NCBI GenBank assembly: GCA_000165345.1 | Contig: CM000435.1 | Span: 448,001-512,000, forward strand | Length of the DNA stretch: 64,000 nt | Direction: 5' to 3' | Part shown: positions 8,910-60,290 of the stretch, one piece after another | Layout: every line of letters begins with the position of its first letter | How positions within the stretch are numbered: the first letter of the stretch is position 1 | Notes under the pieces: generated by a model | Told to the model about the DNA's origin: nothing | Databases searched by the model: none | Seen by the model: the letters and a program-made list of their open reading frames with translations, nothing else | Program-made: the position numbers and the translations under genes

Positions 8910-11900
8910 TTAGATGCGTTTTTTGTGTTTGTAATGATGAGAATGAGTATTGTATGTTTGTTTCTGTTGATTTACGTTAACATTTGAGCTTATATTGCAT
9001 TGATTTCCTACACACTGAGAATCATAAGTTACAATTGCTTCAGTTTTCACTTGCTTAATACATTTTTCTCCTTCTTCCGTGAAACCCTAAAAATTGTAAT
9101 GAATTTAAATTAATTATCACAAAAAAAATTGATTATATTTTCTTTAACTTTTTTTAACTTACAATTGGACACCTAAACTTTGCCTGAGCAAATCTTAAGC
9201 AATGATTCTTTTTTAAAATTAACCCTGGTGGACAAATTCTTTTGTGACCTGAGTACTCAATCATAATACATTTATTTCCGGCTTCTACAAATCCTTTTGG
9301 ACATCTTGAAATCGGGTCAAGATATATCTTATTTTCACATGTATCATTTGGACATTCCTTCTTTAACATAGAGAAACATTGTCCATTTACCATCATGGAA
9401 TCTCTTGGACAGGAATTTACCGTGGAATGGTATTTTTCCCAAACACAAATTGCTTGATCTAGTTTATATCCATTAGGACAACTAACCTCAGGTTCTACAA
9501 CTTTCTGAGTTTTACAATCCTTGTGTTGACAAATCTTATCTTTATAAAGTACACACTTATCTCCACTTAGAATATACCCTTCAGAGGGGCAAATCATATC
9601 TTTTGGAACAATCTCGGATTCCTTACAAGTGTTTCCATTAACTAATTCTGTTCCATTTGGACAAACTTTATTGGGAGTTATTGTTTTCAATTCTTCACAA
9701 TTATTGTTTTGACATTCCTTGACTGAGTAAGTGAGACAACTTCCATTAGAAATAATAGATCCTTTTGGACAAGAGATTTGTCCATTATTAAATAGTTTTT
9801 TCGTGCAAATTGGTCCTCCGTAGTTCAAATTTTGAGAGTTCTTTTGGAATCCAGAAGGACAACTTAAGACTGGGGGGAAAGTTTCTTGGGCTAAACATCC
9901 TCCTCTTGGACAAATCGACTCAACTTCTCTAATACAATAAGAATTCATAAGATTTGTTCCAAGGGGACATTTCAATTGAGGAAGATGATGAACTCTTTTT
10001 GAACAATTTCCTCCAGGGAAAAGTGAATACTGATTAGGACACTCAATAATAGGAGGAAAATGAACTTTTTTCTCACATTGATTATTCAAACATTCCTTAT
10101 AGACATACTTGGCACATAAATCATCCTGAATAGTGAAATCCTTGGGACAAGTAAGAATAGAAGGACTTCTTTTGATACTTTCACATTGATTTCTGGAAAT
10201 CAAAGTTCCTTGCTTACATGTAATTCTTGGTGGAATTGAAATAGTAACTGAGCAGTTTCCTCCTGAACATTCTTTAGATACCTGGTGAACGCATTGATCT
10301 CCTACTAATTTGAACGGTTTAATACATTTCAAAATTTGAGGTCCAATATTAATTTTTTCGCAAAGTTTGGTTTTTGAGTTTAGGGTTTCATTCTCATCAC
10401 ATTTAAACTCTGGAGGCTCTTTATGAATGATCTCACAATTACTATATGAACAAATCTTAACAATTCTTTCAATACAAATTTGTTGATTTGCACTAGAAAG
10501 TTCTCCTCTTTCACAGGTTTTTTCTGGAAAGACTTCATGCTTAAATATACAAACCCCATCTTCAAAAACAAATCCTGGAGGACAAATTCGTATTGAATCG
10601 ATAATATTTCTCAAAGTACAACCTTCTGGAGGACAAATTTTGGTAGTTACTTGAATACAATTTCCTTCTTCCATAATATATCCCTCTTCACAAATTAATT
10701 CTGGAGCTTTTCTAACAATAGAGGCACATTTATTATCTTCAGTCATACTAGAGCCTGGAGGACAAATGTTAACTTTTGGGATCATAAATTCCTCAAAACA
10801 CGTTTCCAGGGTTTTTGTATGGTCTGAGCAGATTCTTGTCATTGGAAGATGTTCTTTCTTCATACACTCTTTTCCAATATTAATTGATCCCTGTGGACAG
10901 GAAATCTTTGGAGGAAAAGCCTCAGTTCTAGTACAAGTTTTATGATTTCTTATGGCTTGAGAACAAATTCCTGAGTTTCTTTGGCCATAAAATCCAAGAT
11001 TAGAAGTATTTATGGTATTGACTCCACTTCCACAAGGAACAGGAACAATACTTACCTCAGAACAATCATATTCAACCAATTTTTGGCATTGTTTGATCTC
11101 ACTCAAATAATATCCCTTGGGACATTCATAGGAAACATCTATAAAACTCTCAACCAGACAGGAATCTCCAATTTTAGTTCCTTTGAGACATTTATATTCA
11201 AGAGGAAGAGGCTTTCTTCCTCCACACATTCCTGAATCAAGTCCAATAGTTCCTTCTGGACATTGAGGTTTTGAGTCTGAAATATTAATTTGAACACAAT
11301 CTCCATATTTTCCTTCCCTTCCAAATCCTTCTGGACAAAAAGAACTAGGTTTTGAGGTCTTAAAGCATTCATCTCCGTTATCCAAAAATCCAGGAGGACA
11401 AATTTTACTTCTTTGTATTGTTTTATGACAACTCATATCTAATTCATTGATTTCATATCCTACTGGACAATTTAACTCTCCCTCAGCTCTTTTCTCTTTT
11501 ATACATTTATTTTCTATTAAAGAATATCCTTCTGGACAATTTGATTTGGCTCTAGTTTCTATAATACAGAAATTCTCATTTGTCGAATCTTCTCTAGATC
11601 CTTCTGGGCATATTTTTGGAATAACTTCAGTATAAATACATTCTCCTAGTGAATTCAAGGTACTGGGTTCCTGACAAACCAAATCTGGAGATCTTGTAGT
11701 AATTTTTGTACACTTTTGTGTCTCAGGATTATATTTGTATCCTTCAATACATTGCTTTTCCGGGGATTCTATAACTGAGCAATAACCTCCAGAATCTAAA
11801 GAATTCAAAGGACATTTTCTTTTTGAAGTATTTTCACTAGTTAAAATACAAACAGAGTCAGATAATTCTGAACCTGAGGGGCATACTGTCTCAGCTGGAG

Positions 11901-13290
11901 ATAGAATAACCTCTTCACATTGTCCATTCACTAAACTCTGGAGATTTGGACAGGTTCTTCTTGGGGATACAAAACTAGCACATTCATTTTCTCCAATCTC
12001 TTCGTATCCTGGGGGACAAACTTGGATATTTCTTTCATACCCAACACAAGTCGAAGTACTTTGTTCAAATTTAGAATTTGGAGGACAAATAATATTTGGT
12101 TCAATGGATAATATTTCCTGGCAAAAATGGTTTTCTGGGTTATATTTAGTTCCAGCAGGACATTCCCATTCTCCTTTTACTTTTTGTAAACACAAATCCT
12201 TAGATCTGAAAGAATTAGCAGGACATTCCTTTTCTAAGGTAATTTCTGAAATACAAAGCTTATTAGATTCATCAAAGTATGAATATTTATTTGGACAAGA
12301 TATTTCTGGTTCAACTGACAAAGTGTTTAAACAAACTTTGCTACCATTATGAATAGTTTGCTCATATCCCTCTGGACAATGAAACAAAGGTTCTTGGTAA
12401 TTTACGCATTGATCTTCAACTTCAACAAATCCTATGGGACAAACTCTATTATTAATTCTGGACATTGAAATACAAGTCTGACCCTCTAAAAAGGACCCAG
12501 GAGGGCACTCTAATGTAGGATTTGAATAGTTAATATACCTACAAAGAGATTGATGTCTAACATTCTCAAGCTGAGTCCCTTTTGGACAAATATATTCTGG
12601 TTGAATCCATGTAGCACATTTATCTTCATCAATATCCTTAAATCCTTCGGGACAAATCTTTGGCTCAATCTGATCTTGAATACACATCTTTAAAGAAGCA
12701 TCAAAAACAAAAGGTTCCGGACAAACTACAGTTGGAAGAGCTGCCTTTCTTTCAATACATAAATTTGTGTTAGAGTCAAATTTGTATGGTTCTTGACAAA
12801 TTTTCATCGGCTCTCTAGCCATCGCACAGGTGTCTCTAAAATTAATGCTCCCTGGAGGACAAATTGCCTTAACTTCCTCTTTGTAGTAACATTTACCTGT
12901 ATTATAATCCATTTCTAAGCCATCAAGACAATATTTTTCCTTTTCAGCAAAGACTTCTTTAACGCATTGTTTGTCTTGCATTTGAAAACCTGTAGGACAT
13001 TCCTTAAGGAGAGGCTCAGCCAAATAGCACTCTGATCCTTTGGATACAAATCCTTCTGGACAAACTGGAATCTTTTGTGTCTCAATTTGATGAACACAAA
13101 TTCCATTTACTAGTGCAAAATTACCTGGGCAGGTCTCCACAGGTACTCTCACATACTGAGAGTTAGTTGGAATACTAAAAAAAAGAAGAACTGAGGTCAA
13201 ACAAATTCTTGCAATTCCTGATAAACTAATCAAAATCATTTTTAGATCTCCGGTTTTATGTACCGGTATCTTCATGCTTTGTTTCCTCAT
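8910..13290 (-). CDS. COWP: Cryptosporidium oocyst wall protein family (COWP-type Cys-rich repeats) with a 3' intron. join(complement 9163..13290, 8910..9086), about 1434 aa
   Basis: Signal-like N-terminus, then dozens of CPxG(F/Y)...C and CxxxxC modules. ORF-track stop at 9154 sits inside GTAAGT. Splicing ATT|GTAAGT...TTTTTAG|GG keeps frame. Added exon reads GFTEEGEKCIKQVKTEAIVTYDSQCVGNQCN..., completing the interrupted CPI|GF..G..C module. Confidence 0.7.
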
Positions 13291-13463: not shown

Positions 13464-13476
13464 TTTGGCGGGAAAT
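13464..13476. promoter_or_regulatory. canonical E2F site TTTTGGCGGGAAA in the COWP/ALG1 divergent intergenic region
   Basis: Sequence aattttggcgggaaatg, about 85 nt upstream of ALG1 ATG 13559. Confidence 0.55.
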
Positions 13477-13558: not shown

Positions 13559-15601
13559 ATGATTCTGTTCGGGATTTTGTTTTGTTTTTTTGTTACGATA
13601 TTCTTTTCAATTTCCTCATTATTCTTTTTGTTATGTTTGGTTATTCGTAGAATTTATATGAGGAGATTAAATAATTATGCGACAACAAGGAATATTGCCG
13701 TTTTAGTTATTGGAGATATAGGTAGGAGTCCAAGGATGCAAAACCATGCTTTGTGTATTTCCAAGAGATTTTGCTCCAAGTTAGATTCTTTGGGGAAAAC
13801 TGGAAAGCTAGTAAATAGAAAGGGGAATAAAGATATTAACCAGAAGCTGGACGACAAAATCAATAATAACCACGTTTATTTGGTTGGATATAATGAAACT
13901 ATTTGTAGTTCAGCTGTGACTGGAGACAAAAATATTACTTTACAAGGTATTGAGAAAACTTTTGTGGAACAATACAGAAAGGTTCTCCCATTGTGGGCTT
14001 TTCTATTCATGAAAGTAGTTGAACAGTCATTGAGGATTTTCATAACAATCATGAAAATTCCAAACCTCTCTGGGATAGTATTACAAGCTCCTCCATCTAT
14101 ACCGGCAATTCCTATTGCTTTGTTAGTTTCTTATATTAAAGGAGCTCATTTAATAATTGACTGGCATAATTATGGTCATACTTTGTTAATAGCCGATAAA
14201 AGAGAGAATAGTCAATTCTCTTTGATCAGGAGAATATACCAACAAATTTTGGTTAATAGTTACAAAATATTAGAGTTCTCGTTAGGAAGACTTTCACATT
14301 CTTCATTTTGTGTTTCTAAAGCCATGCAGGAAGACTTAGCAAAAAGGGGAATTCAAGCAACAGTGGTATATGATAGGCCTAATGATGACTTTAAACCTTT
14401 GGATTCTATCTCAAAGAGACATTCTGTCTTGTTTAAATACTTTGGCAGTTTAGAGAATGAGATTTGTTCTGAGAATTCTAGTTTAGGAGATCAATGCACT
14501 CAAAATACCTTCAATAGAAAGGCTCAAGGAGAAAATAAAAGTAAAACGAAATCCAGAGAAGAGAAAAAATCTGCTCAAAATAACAAGAAAAATAACACAA
14601 AGACAAAAGACGCTTTATTATACGATGAATCTTTGACAAATGTCAAGGATTTGGAATCTGTATCTTTAAATAAATCAGTCTTAGATATGCATCAAATTAG
14701 TGAGAGCATTAATACAAATCTCACAGAACAAGGAAAAGGTTCTGCTAGGACCTCTTTGTTTTCTAAGTCTTTAATAGAGGAAGAATTCTTCTTTGAAATA
14801 GATTCAAGAATCTTGGATGAAATCTCTTCCAACTTCAAAAGTCAGGACTTGAAGGAACTATTAACAAGAGATGATTTATTTTTTGATAATCATATTTTCG
14901 AGACTTCACCTGTAACTGATTTAGGAATTTCTTGCGATCAAATTGATAATAAGATTTCATTAAAGATACAACTCAAGAAGAACAGGCCAGCAGTTTTGAT
15001 AACTTCCACTAGTTGGACTCCTGATGAAGATCTTAACTTATTACTTGAAGGCCTTGTGGAATATGATAAACTTGTTTCAAAACAATTAGGAAACGATAAC
15101 TTATCTAAGAAGCTTCCTGACATATTTCTTATCATTACAGGTAAAGGCCCAAACAAGAATTCATGGTTAGAAAAAGCTTCAAAAACTAAGATGAAACATG
15201 TGAGTATTAGAACAGTCTTTGTTGAAGCTGACGACTATCCAAAGCTGCTAGCTTGTTCAGACTTGGGAATTTCTATGCATTACTCTTCTAGCGGGTTGGA
15301 TCTCCCAATGAAAGTAGTTGATATGCTTGGAGCAGGAATTCCGATAATTTCATTCTCATATCCAACTATTAACGAGCTTTTAAAGAGTGAGAAACTTGAG
15401 TTGTTATTTTCAAACCCTCAAGAGCTTTGTTCTAGAATTACTACTTTACTTGAGGGTTTCAATTCAAGTCTTGAAAAAGAAGCTCTGCCTTCTCCAAATT
15501 TGAACAAGATCCTCAAGTCTAACAACTCAAAGAAAAGAGAAACTTTCTATCAGGAATGGAACAATTCGGCTGTCTATCATTTCGATGAAATGGTAATTTA
15601 A
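13559..15601 (+). CDS. ALG1: ALG1 chitobiosyldiphosphodolichol beta-1,4-mannosyltransferase (GT33) with K/S/N-rich insertion
   Basis: First ATG in ORF frame 13529..15601. N-terminal TM helix, then NIAVLVIGDIGRSPRMQNHA (ALG1 hallmark GDxGRSPRMQ[YN]HA). C-terminal GT-B fold motifs. Low-complexity insert around 14450-14900. Confidence 0.8.
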   Translation: MILFGILFCFFVTIFFSISSLFFLLCLVIRRIYMRRLNNYATTRNIAVLVIGDIGRSPRMQNHALCISKRFCSKLDSLGKTGKLVNRKGNKDINQKLDDKINNNHVYLVGYNETICSSAVTGDKNITLQGIEKTFVEQYRKVLPLWAFLFMKVVEQSLRIFITIMKIPNLSGIVLQAPPSIPAIPIALLVSYIKGAHLIIDWHNYGHTLLIADKRENSQFSLIRRIYQQILVNSYKILEFSLGRLSHSSFCVSKAMQEDLAKRGIQATVVYDRPNDDFKPLDSISKRHSVLFKYFGSLENEICSENSSLGDQCTQNTFNRKAQGENKSKTKSREEKKSAQNNKKNNTKTKDALLYDESLTNVKDLESVSLNKSVLDMHQISESINTNLTEQGKGSARTSLFSKSLIEEEFFFEIDSRILDEISSNFKSQDLKELLTRDDLFFDNHIFETSPVTDLGISCDQIDNKISLKIQLKKNRPAVLITSTSWTPDEDLNLLLEGLVEYDKLVSKQLGNDNLSKKLPDIFLIITGKGPNKNSWLEKASKTKMKHVSIRTVFVEADDYPKLLACSDLGISMHYSSSGLDLPMKVVDMLGAGIPIISFSYPTINELLKSEKLELLFSNPQELCSRITTLLEGFNSSLEKEALPSPNLNKILKSNNSKKRETFYQEWNNSAVYHFDEMVI

Positions 15602-16804: not shown

Positions 16805-16818
16805 TTTGGGCGCCAAAT
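16805..16818. promoter_or_regulatory. palindromic E2F site TTTGGGCGCCAAAT in the Bet3/USP divergent promoter
   Basis: Sequence aagtttgggcgccaaatac, about 50 nt 5' of USP ATG. Confidence 0.55.
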
Positions 16819-32220: not shown

Positions 32221-35007
32221 TTATGCTGCTTCAAAACATTTAATGACGTCCAGACAGACAGATTCTGAGTTTGACCTGCAGGTAATCTTAACTAGGCAGC
32301 CAAGCTCTGCATTGTTTACTATTATCGCGGTACATAAAAAGGGAGTTTTTGCAAAATAAGTACCGGAAAACAAGAGGGTGTGATTAGAGGATTCTAAGTT
32401 AACATTCTCTGTATTGTCGCATGCAGCTGCATTGACTAAGGCCAAAAGTCCATTAACAGCTGAAGGGATATTTTTATATGAAAATGAGAACTTGGCAATG
32501 TGCTCAATTCCGCTAGTTTCGAGAATATTCCAAACATTTTTGAACTCTCCCTGCCTCAAATAGTTAGGGATTATACAGTCAGAGTGTGAGAGAGTCATTG
32601 GATCAATAGTAAATATATCATTATATCCACAATTTTCATCACCATCTTCACAATATAAATAGTCCAGTTTGCATGGAATAACATTTGAAACATTTGGGAA
32701 GTGATCTTGTGTAGAATTCTGAATAAGCACGAAAATTGATTCAGCTTGCCCTGGCTCGAGTTTTGGAATAGGAGCGCTTGCTATAATCGAAAATCCATCA
32801 ATTGCAGCCTCGAATTCAACATTTACATTTTTTAAGAGCACATCATTTAAAGTATTAGCAACCTGGAACTCTAGAACAATGAATTTGCCTTCATTGAAGA
32901 AGTGTTTTCTTAATTGAACCAAATATTCTGATTCGCTTTCAGTTAGAGGAATAGAAGTTGAAGTGAATAAATGGCTGCCCAAATCCTGAGCAGAAATACA
33001 GCCTGAAAGTCGTTCATATATAAGGGAAACATTGACTCCAGTAGAGGTTTTATCTGAAGAGTTTTCTGTTTGGTTTTGGTTTCCTCGAGTTCTGGAAATA
33101 TTGAGAGCTTCCATAGAAGCTGAAACAGAAGTAATATTTGAAGTTATTTGGGAGCCATTGACTGTTGACTCTACGGGGTCTGTTGGTAGGGAATTTAAGT
33201 CCAAAAGAGTTTCAGGTTCGTTTGAAACGACTTTTCCAAGAATAAATGAGAGATTACGTATAGTGTCCGCCTCTTTAGATATTAAATGCTCTCCAAAAAG
33301 GCTTGAATTAGTTAAATCACACTTATTATCATCTGAATCGTCCAGTGAATCTGAAGTAGACTTGTCATCTATGATCATTGAGTAAGTGTTTGTTCGATCT
33401 CTGACTTCGTCATCATTATCTTTGGAACAAACTTGGAGAAGAGTTCTGATATCTTCTCTTAAATCATCGCAAACTAGGGCAATTTGAACCAATGCATCAA
33501 TGCTGGCAGCTCTTACTGCAGAGCTTTCTAGTATGAGCCTATTAAAAATATACCTAATAAATCTGGAGGGAGTATTGGTCTTTGGAATATTCTTCCCAAG
33601 AAATCCCAAAATTCTGATAGTAATTACAGGATACTCGCAGTCTTCTATAGTTTCGCAAGCATGATATAGAATGCTTTCCAGAATATCAGGAATCTCATTA
33701 GAAATATCAAATAATGTATCAATTACGAAAGATTTAAAATCAAGGCTTCCCTCTTCTCTCAAATTGGTCGCCAAGAATGAAAGGATATTCTTGTGTTTTG
33801 TAGGGTATTTCAGGATAAGATTCTTAGTGGCTCTGATAATATCTTTTTTTCCGCCGTCACTAATATCAGCAATAAATGCAGGGATTTGCTTGACAAGCTT
33901 GTCAAGATTATTTTCTTGAGCTATTTTGAGTAAAATAGTGAGTACTAAAGTTGCCATGATTCTATTAGAGTCGTTAAGCAAAGGCTCTAGTTCATGTTGG
34001 CACTTAAAGACAATATTTGGACTTACATTGGCTAGTTCATTAAGAATTCTGACAGCAGCGAACTTTGCCACTGAAATATTCGAGTTTAAAATCATTTGAA
34101 GGGCATTCGAAATTTGCGAAATGTCAATAAAACCAAGTGCTTTATGATTTTGTTTCTCGTGCAAAAACTTTAAAATATCGCATATTCCTCTAGAAGCCTC
34201 TAAAGATACAGCTTCACTTCTACTCTTAAGCATTGTATGGAAGCCATCTAATATCCAGCTTACGTTTTCCCATGAGGAGTCCTGCTTACAAAGAAGAAAA
34301 AACATATTCTTCATTTGTCTGAGCATCAGACAATCGCTATATACAGACTTTATTGGCATCTTGTAGAGCATCTCTATAATCTTTTGTGTTGCCAGTCGAT
34401 CATTATTTCTCAATTCGAATAAAAGTACCAAAGCGTGGTATTGCACCATTCCGTCCCTTCCTTGAATACATTCACTTATTTCATTGAGCCAGCGCCTAGG
34501 AATATCTCCGTGGCCTCTTAGTGCCAAATTATAACCACACAACAGTGCACTGCTCGCAACAAAGGAGTTCTTATCAACTATTGCAGACTTTAAATACCTC
34601 TCAACTTGTCCGATCATTGTACCATCCGCAATCTTACTTATAACCCTGAGAGAATTTGCTCTGTAACAATCATTATTGCTATTCATGTCCTTAATTAGAG
34701 AACTTATGACAACAAATGCTTCGCTTTCATTTACTTTTAAGCTCTTTATTGCTAAGTATACAAGTCTTCTTAAATCTTGGTTGTTTGATTGGAATAATCT
34801 CGTGATTCCAAAGAATAAATCTGACCATTCTTGGTCAGTAAGCCTCTCTCCACTATTGATCATATTCAAAACCTTGGTCAAAACTGTGCAGCATTTTTTT
34901 GAGTTTAAATGGGCCTCGCTAAAACATCTTGTTTCCTGCAAAATTGAGCTTTTCTCACCCAAAAAAGGATTAATTGCAACTCCCTTATCGTCACCTTTCA
35001 AATCCAT
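32221..35007 (-). CDS. COPG: coatomer (COPI) gamma subunit
   Basis: NPFLGEKSSILQETRCFSEAHLNSKKCCTVLTKVLNMINSGERL...LFQSNNQDLRRLVYLAIK aligns with COPG N-terminus. Adaptin trunk plus appendage domain length. Confidence 0.85.
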   Translation of the reverse strand: MDLKGDDKGVAINPFLGEKSSILQETRCFSEAHLNSKKCCTVLTKVLNMINSGERLTDQEWSDLFFGITRLFQSNNQDLRRLVYLAIKSLKVNESEAFVVISSLIKDMNSNNDCYRANSLRVISKIADGTMIGQVERYLKSAIVDKNSFVASSALLCGYNLALRGHGDIPRRWLNEISECIQGRDGMVQYHALVLLFELRNNDRLATQKIIEMLYKMPIKSVYSDCLMLRQMKNMFFLLCKQDSSWENVSWILDGFHTMLKSRSEAVSLEASRGICDILKFLHEKQNHKALGFIDISQISNALQMILNSNISVAKFAAVRILNELANVSPNIVFKCQHELEPLLNDSNRIMATLVLTILLKIAQENNLDKLVKQIPAFIADISDGGKKDIIRATKNLILKYPTKHKNILSFLATNLREEGSLDFKSFVIDTLFDISNEIPDILESILYHACETIEDCEYPVITIRILGFLGKNIPKTNTPSRFIRYIFNRLILESSAVRAASIDALVQIALVCDDLREDIRTLLQVCSKDNDDEVRDRTNTYSMIIDDKSTSDSLDDSDDNKCDLTNSSLFGEHLISKEADTIRNLSFILGKVVSNEPETLLDLNSLPTDPVESTVNGSQITSNITSVSASMEALNISRTRGNQNQTENSSDKTSTGVNVSLIYERLSGCISAQDLGSHLFTSTSIPLTESESEYLVQLRKHFFNEGKFIVLEFQVANTLNDVLLKNVNVEFEAAIDGFSIIASAPIPKLEPGQAESIFVLIQNSTQDHFPNVSNVIPCKLDYLYCEDGDENCGYNDIFTIDPMTLSHSDCIIPNYLRQGEFKNVWNILETSGIEHIAKFSFSYKNIPSAVNGLLALVNAAACDNTENVNLESSNHTLLFSGTYFAKTPFLCTAIIVNNAELGCLVKITCRSNSESVCLDVIKCFEAA

Positions 35008-35470
35008 TTTGTTTTTTATTTCCCTCCTTTCTTATGCGAGGAATTCTTATTTAAGGGGGAAAAAAGCCTTTTTGATTACTTCAAAACAGTTTCTTGTATC
35101 CCCCCCTCAATTCTCTCACAAATACGCTTTAATGTTGCCGCTATAATCTTTTTTTGCTAACTATGAAATTTCAAATTTTTTTTTTTCTTATAAAATAATA
35201 CTCAGTCAGTTAAGTTAATTAAATCATTATACAGAACATAAAAGTTTTCATTAGCACTATTGATTATCTCCAGTACTATATATTTATATTCTTTCCTTCT
35301 TTATAAAATCATTATAGCTTCTGTATCTTACCTATATTCATTTTCCCACAAAATTAATAGCTTTATAGATAAATATTTCTGAATTTTTCTTTGAAATTAT
35401 AACACTAAGCCCGTTAATTTTGATTATTCTTTAATATTTATCTGAATGCATGGAGAAAAGTAGTGGCATG

Positions 35471-35482
35471 TTTCCCGCCAAA
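35471..35482. promoter_or_regulatory. E2F site TTTCCCGCCAAA about 60 nt 5' of Psf3 ATG
   Basis: catgtttcccgccaaagc. Confidence 0.55.
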
Positions 35483-35541
35483 GCCCACACAGAGCATTTA
35501 ATGGAGTGAAATTGTCTTGAAATAACGAGAATATATTAGAG

Positions 35542-36310
35542 ATGGCTGAAGAGAGTTTAGATTTGATTGAGGAGTTTATTAAGACCAGGGATGAGTTGCA
35601 AAAGCGTTCCTTTTCAAGTGTTGACTGGGATGTTGATTATATACTAATGAATGAAACAGTAAGTTGGATTATAGTTATTTCTATTGAGTCAAGTAGATAG
35701 GGATAGCAAATTAGACCCAATTTCAAAAATTAATTTTCTAGCTACTACCTTGTAGAATGGCACTAAGTCAAAAAGAATGTGCTTTTATGTGTATGGATAG
35801 CCAATTAAAAGAAAATAATGAGGTACGTACATGGATTTAATAATACAAAAAATGATCAGCTTTATTGAATCGTAGATTTTAGCTGGCGAGATATTGCAAC
35901 TACCAATATGGCTTGCAAGGGAACTCTATTCTCGAGGCTTCGTTGGGATTGATTATCCGGATTTTCTTTCGTCAAAAATGTCAAACGCTTTAAGAACTGA
36001 CCCCTGTAGTGTGGACTTAAACAATATTTCACCCTATTTCTTTCAAGTTAGTGTAATTTTCCTGGGTTTACTACAAGATGAATTATTTCTCAAGGTAATT
36101 TTGGAATCCTTTCGCAGCCGCCTGGAAAAGTTGTTCCTAGTTTCAATCTATTTGCATCTGCCTAATTCTTCTGAATCTTCAAAGATGAATAATGACCATA
36201 CACAGGTATTTCTTAAATCTCTTACTTCAATCGAAAAAGATATGTTAGAAGAATCATCTATTAGTTACTTCCAATCTGCAAATGCTTTATACTGTAGAAG
36301 AGTAAAGTAG
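35542..36310 (+). CDS. PSF3: GINS complex subunit Psf3 (GINS3), three exons. join(35542..35658, 35742..35822, 35876..36310)
   Basis: Exon 1 MAEESLDLIEEF...VDYILMNET|GTAAGT. Exon 2 LLPCRMALSQ...KENNE|GTACGT. Exon 3 equals ORF-track 35894..36310. Spliced product has the Psf3 hallmarks DDILM..EKLPC and LxLPLWLAxxL(ILQLPIWLARELY), plus DPCSVDLNNISPYFF. Confidence 0.6.
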
Positions 36311-36389
36311 GCAATTTAAATATTATATAAGAAACAAAAAAAAAACAACTTATGAAACTATAATTAAAATAAGCGAGTGAATCTAAGGA

Positions 36390-39300
36390 TTAACGCCTCT
36401 TCCTAGAGTACCCAGAGTCTACTCTTCTATCTTCGTCTTGTTCCCTTCCCCTCTTTCTGTCCTCCTTTATGGCCTGTTTTTCAAGCTCATCCCAACTTAG
36501 ACCTTCTTCTTCATCGCTTGAAAGCTCCTTAAAAGAGTCATCAGAACTTTCCTCCTCAAGATCCGAAAGATCCTCATCGTCATCGTCGTCATCATCATCT
36601 TCATCATCTTCATCACTCTCAGAATATTCTTCATCCTCATCATCATCGTCATCGTCGCTTCCGCCCTCTTCATCATCGCTATCTTCACCTAGGAAACCGT
36701 TGAAGCCTCCATTTTGTACAAAATCTTCAATATCGCTCAATATTGTCTTCAATACAGCATTCCAGTTGAGATTTTGCCTTCCTTCGTAGTAAACAATCTC
36801 CATTTCGTTAAGCCAGCGCTTAATTAAATCTAAATACTCAATAGGAATTGAGTCTACTCGTTTTACAGGCTTTGAATAGTCTTTTGTGACAAAAATCATA
36901 TCAAAGTTGCGAAGTCCCTGTTCGACCCTCTCAAATGATACAACTTCTATTTCATCCAATGAAAGTACAAATGGTGGGAACTCGAGTAGATGAACTAGAC
37001 AAGATGCTGTTGGAAAGAGTTGAACATTTGAAACCCCAGCCCTTCCTGGAACACCATAGAATCCAAGGTCTCTATAAGGAATTTCTGCTTCAAAACTATT
37101 TTTGCTCAACTCTTCAATTCCTTGTATGAATTTTTTATATTCAAGGTTATACCTTTTCTTTGTTTCACGTTCACGCTGTTCCTCCATTATTTCATCAGGA
37201 TCGTACACATTTCTACCTCTTCTCTGCTCTAAATCATCAATTTGGTTTCCTACCTCAGAGTAGAACTGAATATCTTGGGTTTTCTTTTTTCCAAGCCAAA
37301 TTGAATGTTTAAGGTGCAAATGTAAAATGACTATCAAATCGTTTTCCACAGGTTGAAATATTGCATGTTTAATGCTGGTATATAAAATATCAATTGTCTC
37401 ACCCTTGGATGAACTAAACCTGAATCCGTTGTTATGAGCCTCTAATATACCGTGTTGGCGTCTGCCCTGTCCAATTGTGGGCCGAATTCCAACATCTTTA
37501 AGAACTACTCTTTGTTTTGATCTATTGAAATCGATTGGCTGTTGATTCTTAATCATATCCTGTTCTGCCATTTCCTCCTCAAGTGTGCCTTTCTGTTTAA
37601 ATCTTTTAATTAATTCCTTAATGCTTCTGAAGATACTATTTAATGTCTTTCCATCTTCTGAACGAATCATTAGCTCTTTAATAAATACAGGGGTCTTCAA
37701 GGTACTTGGTAACTGCTCTAAAGAAATTCCTGTTGGTAGCAGAAAGTTAATTCTCAAAATAAAAGATTTCCTTCCCTCTTCCTGAGTACAGACAACATTT
37801 TTAAGTAGTCTAACGTGGAAAGGAACCAAAAGACCGTAAATTGGTACAAGGATGCTTTCCTTTGCAGTATCAACATAAATTCTACTAGAACTCCTTTCTT
37901 TTGGATACTCTTTAACAGACTTATAACTTGAAAGCTTGGAATTGAAAAAGTCCTCTTCAGAGTCTGAAATATCTCCTTTTTGGTCATTCTTTTCCTCCTT
38001 CTTACCTCCAAACCGTTTCTGAAGCTCAACAAGTTTACGTTTTCTAAGTTCTTTTTGTCTGTTTTCTATCTCCTTGAGTTCCTCTGAGTGTTCAGAGTTA
38101 TTTACTCTTCTGGCAGTTCTTCTTAGTCTATCTTCAATTATTAAATGCTCTTTAGATTTCTTTTCTTTTTTAATTTCCTTAGAATCTTTTTTTGACTTTG
38201 AATGTCTATCGTCTTCACTATCCTCTTCTGTCTCATCATCGTCAAACTCCTCTTCAGACTCATCAAGCTCCTTTTTTGTTGGCTTTTCCTTCTTAACTTG
38301 TGAAGTCTTTTCTTTCTTTACAACAGGTTTCTGCTCTTCAGGCTCTTCATCATCCAGTTCATATGAGACATGTTCCAGCTTCTTGCTACATCCTTGTGTC
38401 AGGACTTCCACATTGCCTTCTTGGGATAAAAATACAGTATCACAAATCCAAATTGCGTACTTTTTGCCATTAGAGTCCAGATTATTGAATCCAATAGATA
38501 AATTAAAAGTCATTCCTTTCTGTACTAGAACATCTGGGGACGATCTTGGGCTGATTATTAAAGAAGGATCTCTGAACTCAATTCCTATGCAATGTCCCAT
38601 AATCTTAACAAACTTTTGGGCAAGCTCGGTTCCCTTATCTTCAACTATCTTCTGGTAAATACCAGAATAAAGATCGTTAAAAGATGTTCCTTCCTTTATT
38701 CTGGAAATTAGAGTTTCCATAAGTTCCAAGCAATAATTATAAAGACTTTTCTGTTCTTCAGTTGAGTTTAAAAAGTATGTCCTCGTAATGTTTGCACAAT
38801 ACTCTCTATACTTTGAACCTATACTTAATATTATACAACCAGAGGTCAAACACAAGTTTTCATCAGAATTCTCTACTGCTTTTAGCTCAAAATTAGAGCC
38901 ACTTTGGACAAGAGAGTACACCAAATCTATATCTTCCGGATCCAAACCGTACTTTGTTTTCCAAGCATTGTGAATTGTCTTATCATCTAAAGCAGCTTCT
39001 GCACGCCTTCCAATGTTCTTGTGAGACTCTTTCAATTCTTTATCTAAAATGGTTTCGATTCTCTGCAATAACACTCCCTTCAACATCTGGACAGATAAAA
39101 CTGCTGCTTTTTTACACAGTCCAAGCTCTACTTCATCCTTGTGGCACAACAAGTAATCTATAGATGCTGTCACCATCGTGGTCTCCTTGTTACTAAATGG
39201 GTTATCTCCTGAAAACAATTCTTCGCATTGTGATGCAAATTGGCCATCCTGAAGTCCAGCAGGTTCTATTCTCCCAATAGTAGTAGTTGCTTCAGCAATA

Positions 39301-39716
39301 TTTGAAACTAGCTCCTTGTGGTTTTCAAATGATTCTTTTAGATCTCCTTTCCTATCAACTAGAATCAACTCTATATTTGGGAAATTATCCGAAGATCCTT
39401 CTAATAATTGCTGGAGAATTGATACCTTTTTTTGACTTGTAACTATTACAATTTTTTTTTTACGAGAGAATAAAATTAAAGTGTCAGAAAATTCAAAACC
39501 AAACAACCAATAATGGAGTGTCATACTCTTATAAATTACTCCATCCTCTCTAGAAGAACCTTTTCCACACAAAACATATAGAAGGTCCACTTCCCTCAGG
39601 TTTTTGAACACATTTTTATTATCATACTTAGTGTTCTCTTCCAGCCAAACCGAGTATAGGAATTGGATCCTCCTTCCAAAAGATGCAACGTCTAACTTGA
39701 CCTGATCTTTGCCCAT
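36390..39716 (-). CDS. SPT16: FACT complex subunit Spt16
   Basis: N-terminal M24-peptidase-like domain, Spt16 middle domains, very long D/E C-terminal tail, 1108 aa. Confidence 0.8.
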   Translation of the reverse strand: MGKDQVKLDVASFGRRIQFLYSVWLEENTKYDNKNVFKNLREVDLLYVLCGKGSSREDGVIYKSMTLHYWLFGFEFSDTLILFSRKKKIVIVTSQKKVSILQQLLEGSSDNFPNIELILVDRKGDLKESFENHKELVSNIAEATTTIGRIEPAGLQDGQFASQCEELFSGDNPFSNKETTMVTASIDYLLCHKDEVELGLCKKAAVLSVQMLKGVLLQRIETILDKELKESHKNIGRRAEAALDDKTIHNAWKTKYGLDPEDIDLVYSLVQSGSNFELKAVENSDENLCLTSGCIILSIGSKYREYCANITRTYFLNSTEEQKSLYNYCLELMETLISRIKEGTSFNDLYSGIYQKIVEDKGTELAQKFVKIMGHCIGIEFRDPSLIISPRSSPDVLVQKGMTFNLSIGFNNLDSNGKKYAIWICDTVFLSQEGNVEVLTQGCSKKLEHVSYELDDEEPEEQKPVVKKEKTSQVKKEKPTKKELDESEEEFDDDETEEDSEDDRHSKSKKDSKEIKKEKKSKEHLIIEDRLRRTARRVNNSEHSEELKEIENRQKELRKRKLVELQKRFGGKKEEKNDQKGDISDSEEDFFNSKLSSYKSVKEYPKERSSSRIYVDTAKESILVPIYGLLVPFHVRLLKNVVCTQEEGRKSFILRINFLLPTGISLEQLPSTLKTPVFIKELMIRSEDGKTLNSIFRSIKELIKRFKQKGTLEEEMAEQDMIKNQQPIDFNRSKQRVVLKDVGIRPTIGQGRRQHGILEAHNNGFRFSSSKGETIDILYTSIKHAIFQPVENDLIVILHLHLKHSIWLGKKKTQDIQFYSEVGNQIDDLEQRRGRNVYDPDEIMEEQRERETKKRYNLEYKKFIQGIEELSKNSFEAEIPYRDLGFYGVPGRAGVSNVQLFPTASCLVHLLEFPPFVLSLDEIEVVSFERVEQGLRNFDMIFVTKDYSKPVKRVDSIPIEYLDLIKRWLNEMEIVYYEGRQNLNWNAVLKTILSDIEDFVQNGGFNGFLGEDSDDEEGGSDDDDDDEDEEYSESDEDDEDDDDDDDDEDLSDLEEESSDDSFKELSSDEEEGLSWDELEKQAIKEDRKRGREQDEDRRVDSGYSRKRR
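36497..36700. repeat. GAN/GAT trinucleotide-rich tract encoding the acidic Spt16 tail
   Basis: Runs of gat gac gaa codons. Antisense gives a poly-Ser artefact ORF. Confidence 0.8.
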
Positions 39717-58442: not shown

Positions 58443-59594
58443 ATGACTGAAATTTCAGGTTCACTTTGGAATGCAAATAACTGGCACTGGGAAGAGAAAG
58501 ATTATTCTAAATGGGGTAAAGAAGAGCTAAGAACAATCATGGAGTCTATTAAGTATTCTTTTGAGCTCGAAGCTCCAAAATTTGAACTATCATTCTCAGA
58601 TCTATCAATCAGAGGTGAAGCGTCTATTTCGGTAAGGAAAAAACAACCGATTTTAGCCTATGAGTTTTCAATATCTGGAACTTGGTCAGTAAATGAAGTA
58701 GAAAGTCAAAAGAAGATCATTCTTGGTCAAATTACAATTCCAGAGTTCTCTGTGGATAATTATGAAGAAGACTTCCCTATTATGATCACATGCAAAGAAG
58801 TTATAAGTAAGGACTACAACTCAGAACTTATTCTTTCAGAGATGAAAAAGAAGGTGGTTGTAAAACTGAGAAAAAAACTTATGGAATTTCATAATAAACT
58901 ATTAAATAAGGAGAACGACCAAAGAAAGATTGAAACTGAGAGAGTTAAAAGAGAGGAAGAAATTAAAACAGCAGAAATTGCTAGAGTTGAGAAGGAAGAG
59001 GAGAAAAGACAAATTTACAATCAACAAATTGAAAAGGAAACGTTAATTAAACAAAGAGAATCTGAAGCATCAACTAAAACAATTGATCCTCATCCTCAAG
59101 CTCAAGGAAGTGTTTGGAATGCAAACAATTGGCACTGGGAAGAAAAACCAGAAACCAACTGGGTTATTTCTACGTTAACAAAGATGATTGAAGATCTATC
59201 AACAAATAAATCTGATTCAGGAAATTCGGATCTGATCCCAATCAGCTTCTCTGAAGTGAAAGTGACTGGGGAAGCATCCTCAAGCGTCAGAAAAGGCAAA
59301 AAAATTTGCGTCCTAGACTGCAGCGTTTTTGGGAGATTTAATGCAATCATTCCAGAAGGAATGTTAAGTCAAAACAAAGAGTCAAATCTAATTGGCTCAT
59401 TTTCTCTTACAGAGATTAATATGATGGATACGCACGATTACGGAAAGAAAATTAATTATGAATCAGCAGAATTGGGATTAAAGACGGCTGATATCCCAGA
59501 GTTTATTGATTTTAAAGGAAAAATAGAAAAACAAATTTTGGGGAGTTTAGATAGTGCGATACAAAAGTTCTGTGTTGAATTTCTAAATAAATAA
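58443..59594 (+). CDS. AHA1: Aha1-related Hsp90 co-chaperone with two tandem Aha1 N-terminal domains
   Basis: SLWNANNWHWEEKD at residue about 6 and SVWNANNWHWEEKP at about 212. Each is followed by an S..V.GEAS...RKGK motif. Linked by a K/E-rich helix. Confidence 0.7.
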   Translation: MTEISGSLWNANNWHWEEKDYSKWGKEELRTIMESIKYSFELEAPKFELSFSDLSIRGEASISVRKKQPILAYEFSISGTWSVNEVESQKKIILGQITIPEFSVDNYEEDFPIMITCKEVISKDYNSELILSEMKKKVVVKLRKKLMEFHNKLLNKENDQRKIETERVKREEEIKTAEIARVEKEEEKRQIYNQQIEKETLIKQRESEASTKTIDPHPQAQGSVWNANNWHWEEKPETNWVISTLTKMIEDLSTNKSDSGNSDLIPISFSEVKVTGEASSSVRKGKKICVLDCSVFGRFNAIIPEGMLSQNKESNLIGSFSLTEINMMDTHDYGKKINYESAELGLKTADIPEFIDFKGKIEKQILGSLDSAIQKFCVEFLNK

Positions 59595-59645
59595 ATAGAA
59601 TTAGCTACTATAATTTTGATATACTACAAATCTATCCTTCATGTA

Positions 59646-60290
59646 TTATTTTGAGAATTCACTCATAGCCACGTTGGTCTTTCCATCTCTTAAATCATAC
59701 ACATAAAGAACAACCTTATTGCCTTGAAGGGCCATTAGCATGAAGGATGGAGGAGCATCTGGAGTTAATGCACTAAATGCCCCTGTTGCTGTTCCAGGGT
59801 TTAGAAACAATTTACCATTTTTCTCAAAAACCCTTAATTTATGTGTGTGTCCAGTTACTAATATATCGCAATCTAGACGTCTTTGCCATTGCTCAAGAGA
59901 GCCAGGATCGTCCCATGGAAGAACCTGGTTTCCATGCATCAATCCTATCTTAAATTCTCCAATCTGTACTACTACATATTCGGGAAACACGCCATTACTT
60001 TCAGGGTCAGGATTAAAAATTGCAGAGTCCAAGTCTCCACTAACTATGTATACATTTTTGGTAATATTTTTCAGCATTTCCACGTATTCTTGCGAGCATA
60101 CATTACCTGTGCAGAGAACGTAGTTGATTTTATCAGTAGCCAGCAGCTCTCTAAAATTTGACGGCAACTCTTTTGCTCCGTAGGGAATTTTTAAATCACC
60201 AATCAATAGCACTAAATCTCCAAAGTCTGTGGAACTCATTCTTATAGGAGTTGTTTGAGCTTCGGATCTTCTTATTATTAAAGCTATCAA
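59646..60290 (-). CDS. VPS29: retromer subunit Vps29 (metallophosphoesterase fold)
   Basis: LVLLIGDLKIPYGAKELP...YVLCTGNVCSQE...VYIVSGDLD...FKIGLMHGNQVLPWDD...DILVTGHTHK...FLNPGTATGAFS aligns with Vps29. True start may be the internal MSSTDFGD (60239). Confidence 0.85.
   Translation of the reverse strand: MIALIIRRSEAQTTPIRMSSTDFGDLVLLIGDLKIPYGAKELPSNFRELLATDKINYVLCTGNVCSQEYVEMLKNITKNVYIVSGDLDSAIFNPDPESNGVFPEYVVVQIGEFKIGLMHGNQVLPWDDPGSLEQWQRRLDCDILVTGHTHKLRVFEKNGKLFLNPGTATGAFSALTPDAPPSFMLMALQGNKVVLYVYDLRDGKTNVAMSEFSK

Follow-up and report, generated by a model that had tools for sequence, protein, structure and literature searches.

GINS has four subunits, among them Psf3. The Psf3 of Saccharomyces cerevisiae (PDB 7qhs_C and 3jc5_C) and human GINS3 (2eho_D) consist of two domains, in the order PSF3_N beta domain and then GINS helical bundle, and the same order is found in the protein described here. 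The control of replication genes by E2F is an ancestral trait of eukaryotes and, to our knowledge, Cryptosporidium alone among the apicomplexans has kept E2F/DP factors. No promoter motif is more widespread in C. parvum than the E2F motif. Two E2F-like motifs have been described in this species, motif 3 (DTTGSCGCCH) and motif 4 (TTTGGCGGGAAV) (Oberstaller et al. 2013, PMC3734150), and a TGCATG motif family has been reported as well (PMC3734150). Intergenic regions of C. parvum have a mean length of about 550 bp over all orientations, and re-annotation of the genome increased the proportion of genes with introns from 4.3% to 10.8% (PMC4637869).

Here, a 64-kb stretch of C. parvum DNA (the window, to which all positions refer unless stated otherwise) was analysed. 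One region of it is, with little room for doubt, the chromosome-7 Psf3 (GINS3) gene, with three exons, a putative role in GINS and the CMG helicase, a conserved composite promoter with putative E2F binding, and a spacer shared with Spt16 (Table 1). The gene has an intergenic region of 534 bp in common with its divergent neighbour, the gene for coatomer gamma, and is convergent with the gene for the FACT subunit Spt16; both neighbours were identified from precomputed Pfam matches on identical deposited genes. The C. parvum locus was compared with its orthologues in the chipmunk genotype, C. ubiquitum, C. canis, C. bovis, C. ryanae, and C. andersoni, and the coatomer-gamma/Psf3/Spt16 arrangement is common to all seven species.

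Table 1. Positions of the features at the C. parvum Psf3 locus
Feature	Position	Strand	Remarks
Coatomer gamma, divergent neighbour	32221..35007	-	928 aa; Pfam Adaptin_N, COP-gamma_platf, Coatomer_g_Cpla
TGCATG, AP2_1-like motif	35447..35452	+	About 20 nt upstream of the E2F-like site; read from the sequence
E2F-like site TTTCCCGCCAAA	35471-35482	+	Reverse complement of C. parvum motif 4; 59 nt to the ATG
G-box-like box CCCACACA	35484..35491	+	Reverse complement of DTGTGGGG; adjoins the E2F-like site
Psf3 exon 1	35542-35658	+	39 codons; encodes the N-terminal helix and the first part of the PSF3_N beta domain
Intron 1	35659-35741	+	83 nt, phase 0; donor ACA/GTAAGT, acceptor TTTTCTAG/ (GTAAGT...TCTAG)
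Psf3 exon 2	35742-35822	+	27 codons, 81 nt; inside the PSF3_N match (residues 29-84)
Intron 2	35823-35875	+	53 nt, phase 0; donor GAG/GTACGT, acceptor ATCGTAG/ (GTACGT...CGTAG)
Psf3 exon 3	35876-36310	+	144 codons and TAG; end of the beta domain and GINS helical-bundle (A) domain
Psf3/Spt16 tail-to-tail spacer	36311..36389	.	79 bp, A+T-rich
FACT subunit Spt16, convergent neighbour	36390..39716	-	1108 aa, single exon; Pfam FACT-Spt16_Nlob, Peptidase_M24, SPT16, PH_SPT16, Rttp106-like_middle, SPT16_C

Gene structure and annotation status

A mechanical list of open reading frames (ORFs) holds two entries at Psf3, 35894..36310 (138 aa, TTG start) and 35542..35700 (52 aa), so that, as the preliminary description had remarked, the last exon is the only exon in the ORF track. 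That description had joined two upstream exons to it at junctions 35658/35742 and 35822/35876, with GTAAGT and GTACGT donors and YAG acceptors. These splice sites are present at the positions given, and the junctions are exactly those of the deposited models (100% identity over 210 aa). The assembly of the gene from raw sequence is correct and the observation is confirmed, although the product is four residues longer than the 206 aa first given: the spliced coding sequence of 633 nt, within a gene span of 769 nt, encodes 210 aa. The unspliced frame meets a stop at codon 53, intron 1 leads to a stop when read through in frame, and the frame is restored only by splicing. Both introns are GT..AG introns with consensus sites, and the length of neither is a multiple of three. 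The peptide DYILMNET/LLPC crosses junction 1 (at the slash), and ILQLPIWLARELY lies within exon 3. An alternative acceptor at 35882 (TTTTAG), 7 nt downstream of that of intron 2, was rejected as it is out of frame.

The three exons and the positions and phases of both introns are identical in all seven species, with exon 2 being 81 nt long in each. Intron 1 measures 83, 86, 80, 86, 180, 167, and 61 nt over the seven species and intron 2 from 50 to 82 nt, and these lengths are, with one exception, not multiples of three. Among the four close species, the exons show a mean pairwise identity of 0.78–0.82 without indels (only small ones occur against the distant species), whereas the introns show 0.67–0.68 with indels; for intron 1 and exon 1 the values are 0.68 and 0.80, respectively. 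The third codon position holds 55–76% of the exon differences among the four close species, the substitutions at positions 1/2/3 being 24/19/96 in exon 1, 27/22/60 in exon 2, and 89/22/353 in exon 3. An equivalent of exon 1 was found in C. bovis, C. ryanae, and C. andersoni, and intron 2 is also used in the independent annotations of these three species. The predicted junctions draw their support from these comparative data and from identity with public, evidence-based models.

Deposited C. parvum proteins match the 210-aa product at 100% identity from end to end. The models CPHLJ_7g1920, QOY40509.1, and WKS78879.1 show no difference in the protein or in the 769-nt gene span, and 6.8 kb around Psf3 agree with the chromosome-7 record CP029786.1 with 0 mismatches. 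Psf3 models with the same synteny have also been deposited for C. hominis, C. meleagridis, C. ubiquitum (cubi_02869), C. canis, and C. andersoni (cand_030030), and a C. hominis record of 210 aa in the same 90% cluster is named ‘DNA replication complex GINS protein psf3’. The gene had been called unannotated. This holds for the ORF track and for the 2004 Iowa II model XP_628369.1 (‘hypothetical protein, partial’, 144 aa), which corresponds exactly to exon 3 and contains the same error as the ORF track, but not for the current annotations of C. parvum, C. hominis, and C. meleagridis, which carry the full model. Annotation of Psf3 at full length fits the published re-annotation (PMC4637869). Given the identical deposited models and the named C. 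hominis orthologue, the finding is already known, with both the gene model and the E2F-like motif being present in public databases and papers. By locus-tag numbering the gene is cgd7_1920/CPHLJ_7g1920; a full-text literature search for cgd7_1920 returned no papers, the gene appearing only in supplementary tables. The value of the observation is mainly that a correct spliced gene was built at the first stage of reading in a genome where only about 11% of the genes have introns (PMC4637869). In addition, the C. parvum product, now listed as ‘hypothetical protein’ or ‘GINS subunit domain A’, could be renamed Psf3.

In the public Psf3 models of C. bovis and C. ryanae (168 aa), translation begins at a methionine inside exon 2, and PSF3_N is missing. 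Upstream of these models there is a conserved exon 1 with a GTAAGT donor (2692-2805 of the C. bovis locus L007 and 2705-2818 of the C. ryanae locus L008), followed by an intron 1 of 180 nt in C. bovis and 167 nt in C. ryanae. With exon 1 added, the proteins are 211 aa long and align end to end with that of C. parvum, and both public models could be mended in this way.

The E2F-like site and the promoter block

A perfect E2F site had been reported about 60 nt upstream of the gene, and TTTCCCGCCAAA is indeed found there. The site is an exact instance of the published motif 4 on the opposite strand and of TTTCCCGC, and it also matches the canonical E2F/DP site TTTSSCGC exactly. The window contains two copies of the exact 12-mer, where shuffles give an expectation of 0.02, and motif-4-like 12-mers with no more than one mismatch give 14 matches at nine loci against 1.3 expected. 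Six of the seven species retain the E2F core CCGCCA at −62 to −79; C. andersoni lacks it at the corresponding position but still has CCCCACA (about 2949-2955 of locus L009, −52 from the ATG). The adjoining CCCACA is invariant in all seven species, C. andersoni included, at −52 to −70, and is thus more deeply conserved than the E2F core. The box matches the published G-box-like motif 2 at 7/8 positions in C. parvum and at 8/8 in C. ubiquitum and C. canis (PMC3734150). In the 160 nt upstream of the Psf3 ATG, TT[CG]CCGCCAAA[GC]CCCACA is the only island conserved in six species. C. parvum, the chipmunk genotype, and C. canis share TGCATG, which C. ubiquitum, C. bovis, and C. ryanae lack; any role of the motif at Psf3 is putative.

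The E2F-like site is real and probably functional. Transcription of Psf3 most likely starts in the approximately 60 nt between the ATG and a composite promoter block, which would be made up of the E2F-like site and the adjoining G-box-like CCCACA, with TGCATG further upstream. E2F/DP factors probably bind the E2F-like site.

The site had also been said to fit S-phase regulation of a replication gene. It is compatible with such regulation but does not serve as evidence for it, since the motif also precedes unrelated genes in the window. Eight of the nine E2F-like loci lie outside coding sequence, seven of them intergenic and the eighth upstream of the first ATG of an SMC gene, and six of the nine, the Psf3 site included, are 46–98 nt upstream of an ATG. 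The unrelated genes downstream of such sites encode a glycosyltransferase, UDP-glucose pyrophosphorylase, CDPK, SMC, NDH2, and a COQ10-like protein. Furthermore, the E2F-like motifs are over-represented in 114 (motif 3) and 47 (motif 4) published expression clusters, which peak at any time point, and in more than half of the clusters overall (PMC3734150). The Psf3 site can therefore not be read as an S-phase switch, and its use as a diagnostic of S-phase control was rejected.

It is quite possible, although we rate the chance at somewhat below even, that the E2F-like site serves as a generic element of core promoters or open chromatin in C. parvum, perhaps for a bidirectional coatomer-gamma/Psf3 promoter, rather than a replication-specific S-phase switch, in which case the timing of Psf3 would come from other elements such as CCCACA. 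Such a generic role is consistent with the spread of the sites over promoters of metabolic, kinase, and SMC genes and over clusters of any peak time, and with the finding that the E2F motif is the top motif in sporozoite ATAC-seq peaks, bidirectional promoters making up more than half of these peaks. It also agrees with the position of the site in the intergenic region common to coatomer gamma and Psf3, and with C. andersoni having CCCCACA without the E2F core. Against it, the site is conserved in the other six species and lies 59 nt from the Psf3 ATG but 463 nt from the coatomer-gamma ATG. A link with replication is favoured by the ancestral eukaryotic control of replication genes by E2F and by the co-clustering, in published expression data, of cgd7_1920 (a tag assigned by locus-tag numbering) with RPA1, DNA ligase I, and thymidine kinase, in cluster 125 with a membership of only 0.68. 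The conserved E2F and CCCACA sequences form a compact, phylogenetically footprinted promoter that may provide a test case for putative E2F regulation in Cryptosporidium.

The only other exact copy of TTTCCCGCCAAA in the window lies at 13464-13475 (−), in a divergent promoter flanked by an ORF of 1378 aa (9154-13290, −) and a group-1 glycosyltransferase ORF (first ATG at 13559). One-mismatch sites were found at 16806, 18973, 25305, 30250, 42208, and 63919, all of them non-coding, and most are 46–98 nt before the first ATG of a gene (UDP-glucose pyrophosphorylase, CDPK with a CBM20 domain, SMC, and NDH2). For several of these genes the start in the ORF list (TTG or GTG) precedes the first ATG.

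The spacer shared with Spt16

The Psf3 stop had been placed about 80 bp from the convergent Spt16 stop; the two genes end at 36310 and 36390, leaving 79 bp between them. The stop-to-stop gap ranges from 73 to 126 bp over all seven species. We rejected the idea that the gap is exceptional, because the gaps of other convergent pairs in the window measure 51, 144, 161, and 187 bp, and packing of this kind is typical of this compact genome. The 51-bp gap (59595-59645), which is tighter than that of Psf3/Spt16, separates an Aha1-like ORF (58443-59594, +) from a metallophosphoesterase ORF (59646-60290, −).

The 79-bp spacer must hold, or be overlapped by, the 3′ ends of both Psf3 and Spt16, and the 3′ end of Psf3 would form within the spacer or cross it. 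Amid otherwise diverging spacer sequence, TATAATTAA at 36359-36367 is invariant in the four close species and overlaps ATTAAA, but its conservation does not extend to C. bovis or C. ryanae. Judging by its sequence, TATAATTAA may act for both genes as a poly(A) or termination signal. In an Rfam scan of 34500-37000, all matches were below threshold; they were to archaeal C/D-box snoRNAs at 36575-36647 (−), the best with 24.8 bits against a gathering cut-off of 42. They fall in the GAT repeat that codes for the acidic C-terminal tail of Spt16 and were rejected as an artefact of chance or composition.

A bolder reading would combine promoter and spacer: the E2F core and CCCACA would form a bipartite module that sets the timing of replication genes, and the packing, throughout the genus, of Psf3 with Spt16, a histone chaperone associated with the replisome, would force overlapping 3′ ends that couple the expression of the two genes. 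The ground for a bipartite module is that CCCACA is kept even where the E2F core has been lost. Both parts draw on sequence conservation, and many convergent genes in this genome lie close together. We consider this combined reading very unlikely.

Assignment to Psf3 and comparison with known systems

The spliced protein had been proposed to be Psf3, with a profile search suggested as a check. Judged by the curated gathering cut-offs of Pfam, it matches PSF3_N (PF22466) with 30.8 bits against a cut-off of 27 (residues 29–84, profile positions 1–52 of 53, across both junctions) and the GINS helical bundle (PF05916, Sld5/GINS) with 35.4 bits against 22.3 (residues 97–198). Both the Pfam order and the AlphaFold model give the beta-then-alpha domain order of the Psf2/Psf3 class, and not the alpha-then-beta order of the Sld5/Psf1 class. 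Searching all PDB sequences by phmmer and by profile retrieved Psf3 from yeast, human, Drosophila, Xenopus, and C. elegans (best E 4e-14), with no Psf2, Psf1, or Sld5 chain up to E 10 and the remaining chains being non-GINS proteins with E >1. An exhaustive profile search of 1.84 billion representatives yielded 416 relatives, and PSF3_N is present in all 82 of the near full-length relatives selected from them. A word-indexed search of 5.8 billion proteins, which included a profile search, gave no match outside the genus because the sequence is divergent. The nearly invariant family residues P76, W78, P94, R148, and E186 are all present in the protein.

The AlphaFold model, for which the 82-sequence alignment was the input, has a pLDDT of 91 and a pTM of 0.79; a six-sequence Cryptosporidium alignment gave a pLDDT of 41 and was unusable. 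The model comprises an N-terminal helix, a small beta domain (strands 40–91), and a helical bundle (helices 99–209). In a Foldseek search of the PDB with this model, ranks 1–23 are all Psf3 chains (target-normalised TM 0.83–0.88, rmsd 2.4–2.7 Å), and Psf2 chains follow from rank 24 with E of about 1e-4 (2e-4 to 1e-2) and TM 0.5–0.65. The closest superpositions of the model are on Psf3 of yeast and human. Every feature of family membership that could be tested was found, and sequence and modelled structure together assign the protein to Psf3, as had been proposed, and to no other family.

Psf2 has the same beta-then-alpha domain order, its chains appear in the fold search, and one of the 82 relatives also matches PSF2_N weakly. 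That the protein is Psf2, the other GINS subunit with this order, is nevertheless extremely improbable, given that PSF3_N scores above its gathering cut-off and is carried by all 82 relatives, that Psf2 is absent from both PDB sequence searches up to E 10, and that the fold is far closer to Psf3 than to Psf2 by TM. Equally, the idea that the gene consists of its last exon alone, which is all that the 2004 Iowa II model and the mechanical ORF list show of it, and that the upstream exons are chance frames bounded by chance GT and AG dinucleotides has next to no chance of being right, as the PSF3_N match runs continuously over both junctions, exons 1 and 2 keep their length, phase, and coding-type substitutions across all seven species, in contrast to the introns, which have diverged and contain indels, several independent later annotations contain the 210-aa product, and the complete Psf3 fold is modelled only with the residues of exons 1 and 2.

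In the three-exon Psf3 gene that we favour, removal of two short phase-0 GT-AG introns would give a 210-aa Psf3 made up of an N-terminal helix (residues 3–27), the PSF3_N beta domain (about 29–91, across both junctions), and the helical bundle (about 97–209). By homology, the protein would join Psf1, Psf2, and Sld5 in the GINS tetramer, which together with Cdc45 and MCM2-7 would form the CMG helicase for origin firing and fork progression in merogony.

Compared with known Psf3/GINS3 proteins, the Cryptosporidium sequence is divergent, while a functional difference is not in evidence. It shares 27–28% identity with yeast Psf3 over about 180 aligned columns, and it differs from yeast Psf3 at its N-terminus, where exon 1 encodes a helical extension of 28 residues that lies outside the matches, the alignments beginning at about residues 24–29. 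The E2F-like site, an instance of the published motif 4, is promoter-proximal like the other instances in the window, but at Psf3 it is fused to the more deeply conserved G-box-like CCCACA.
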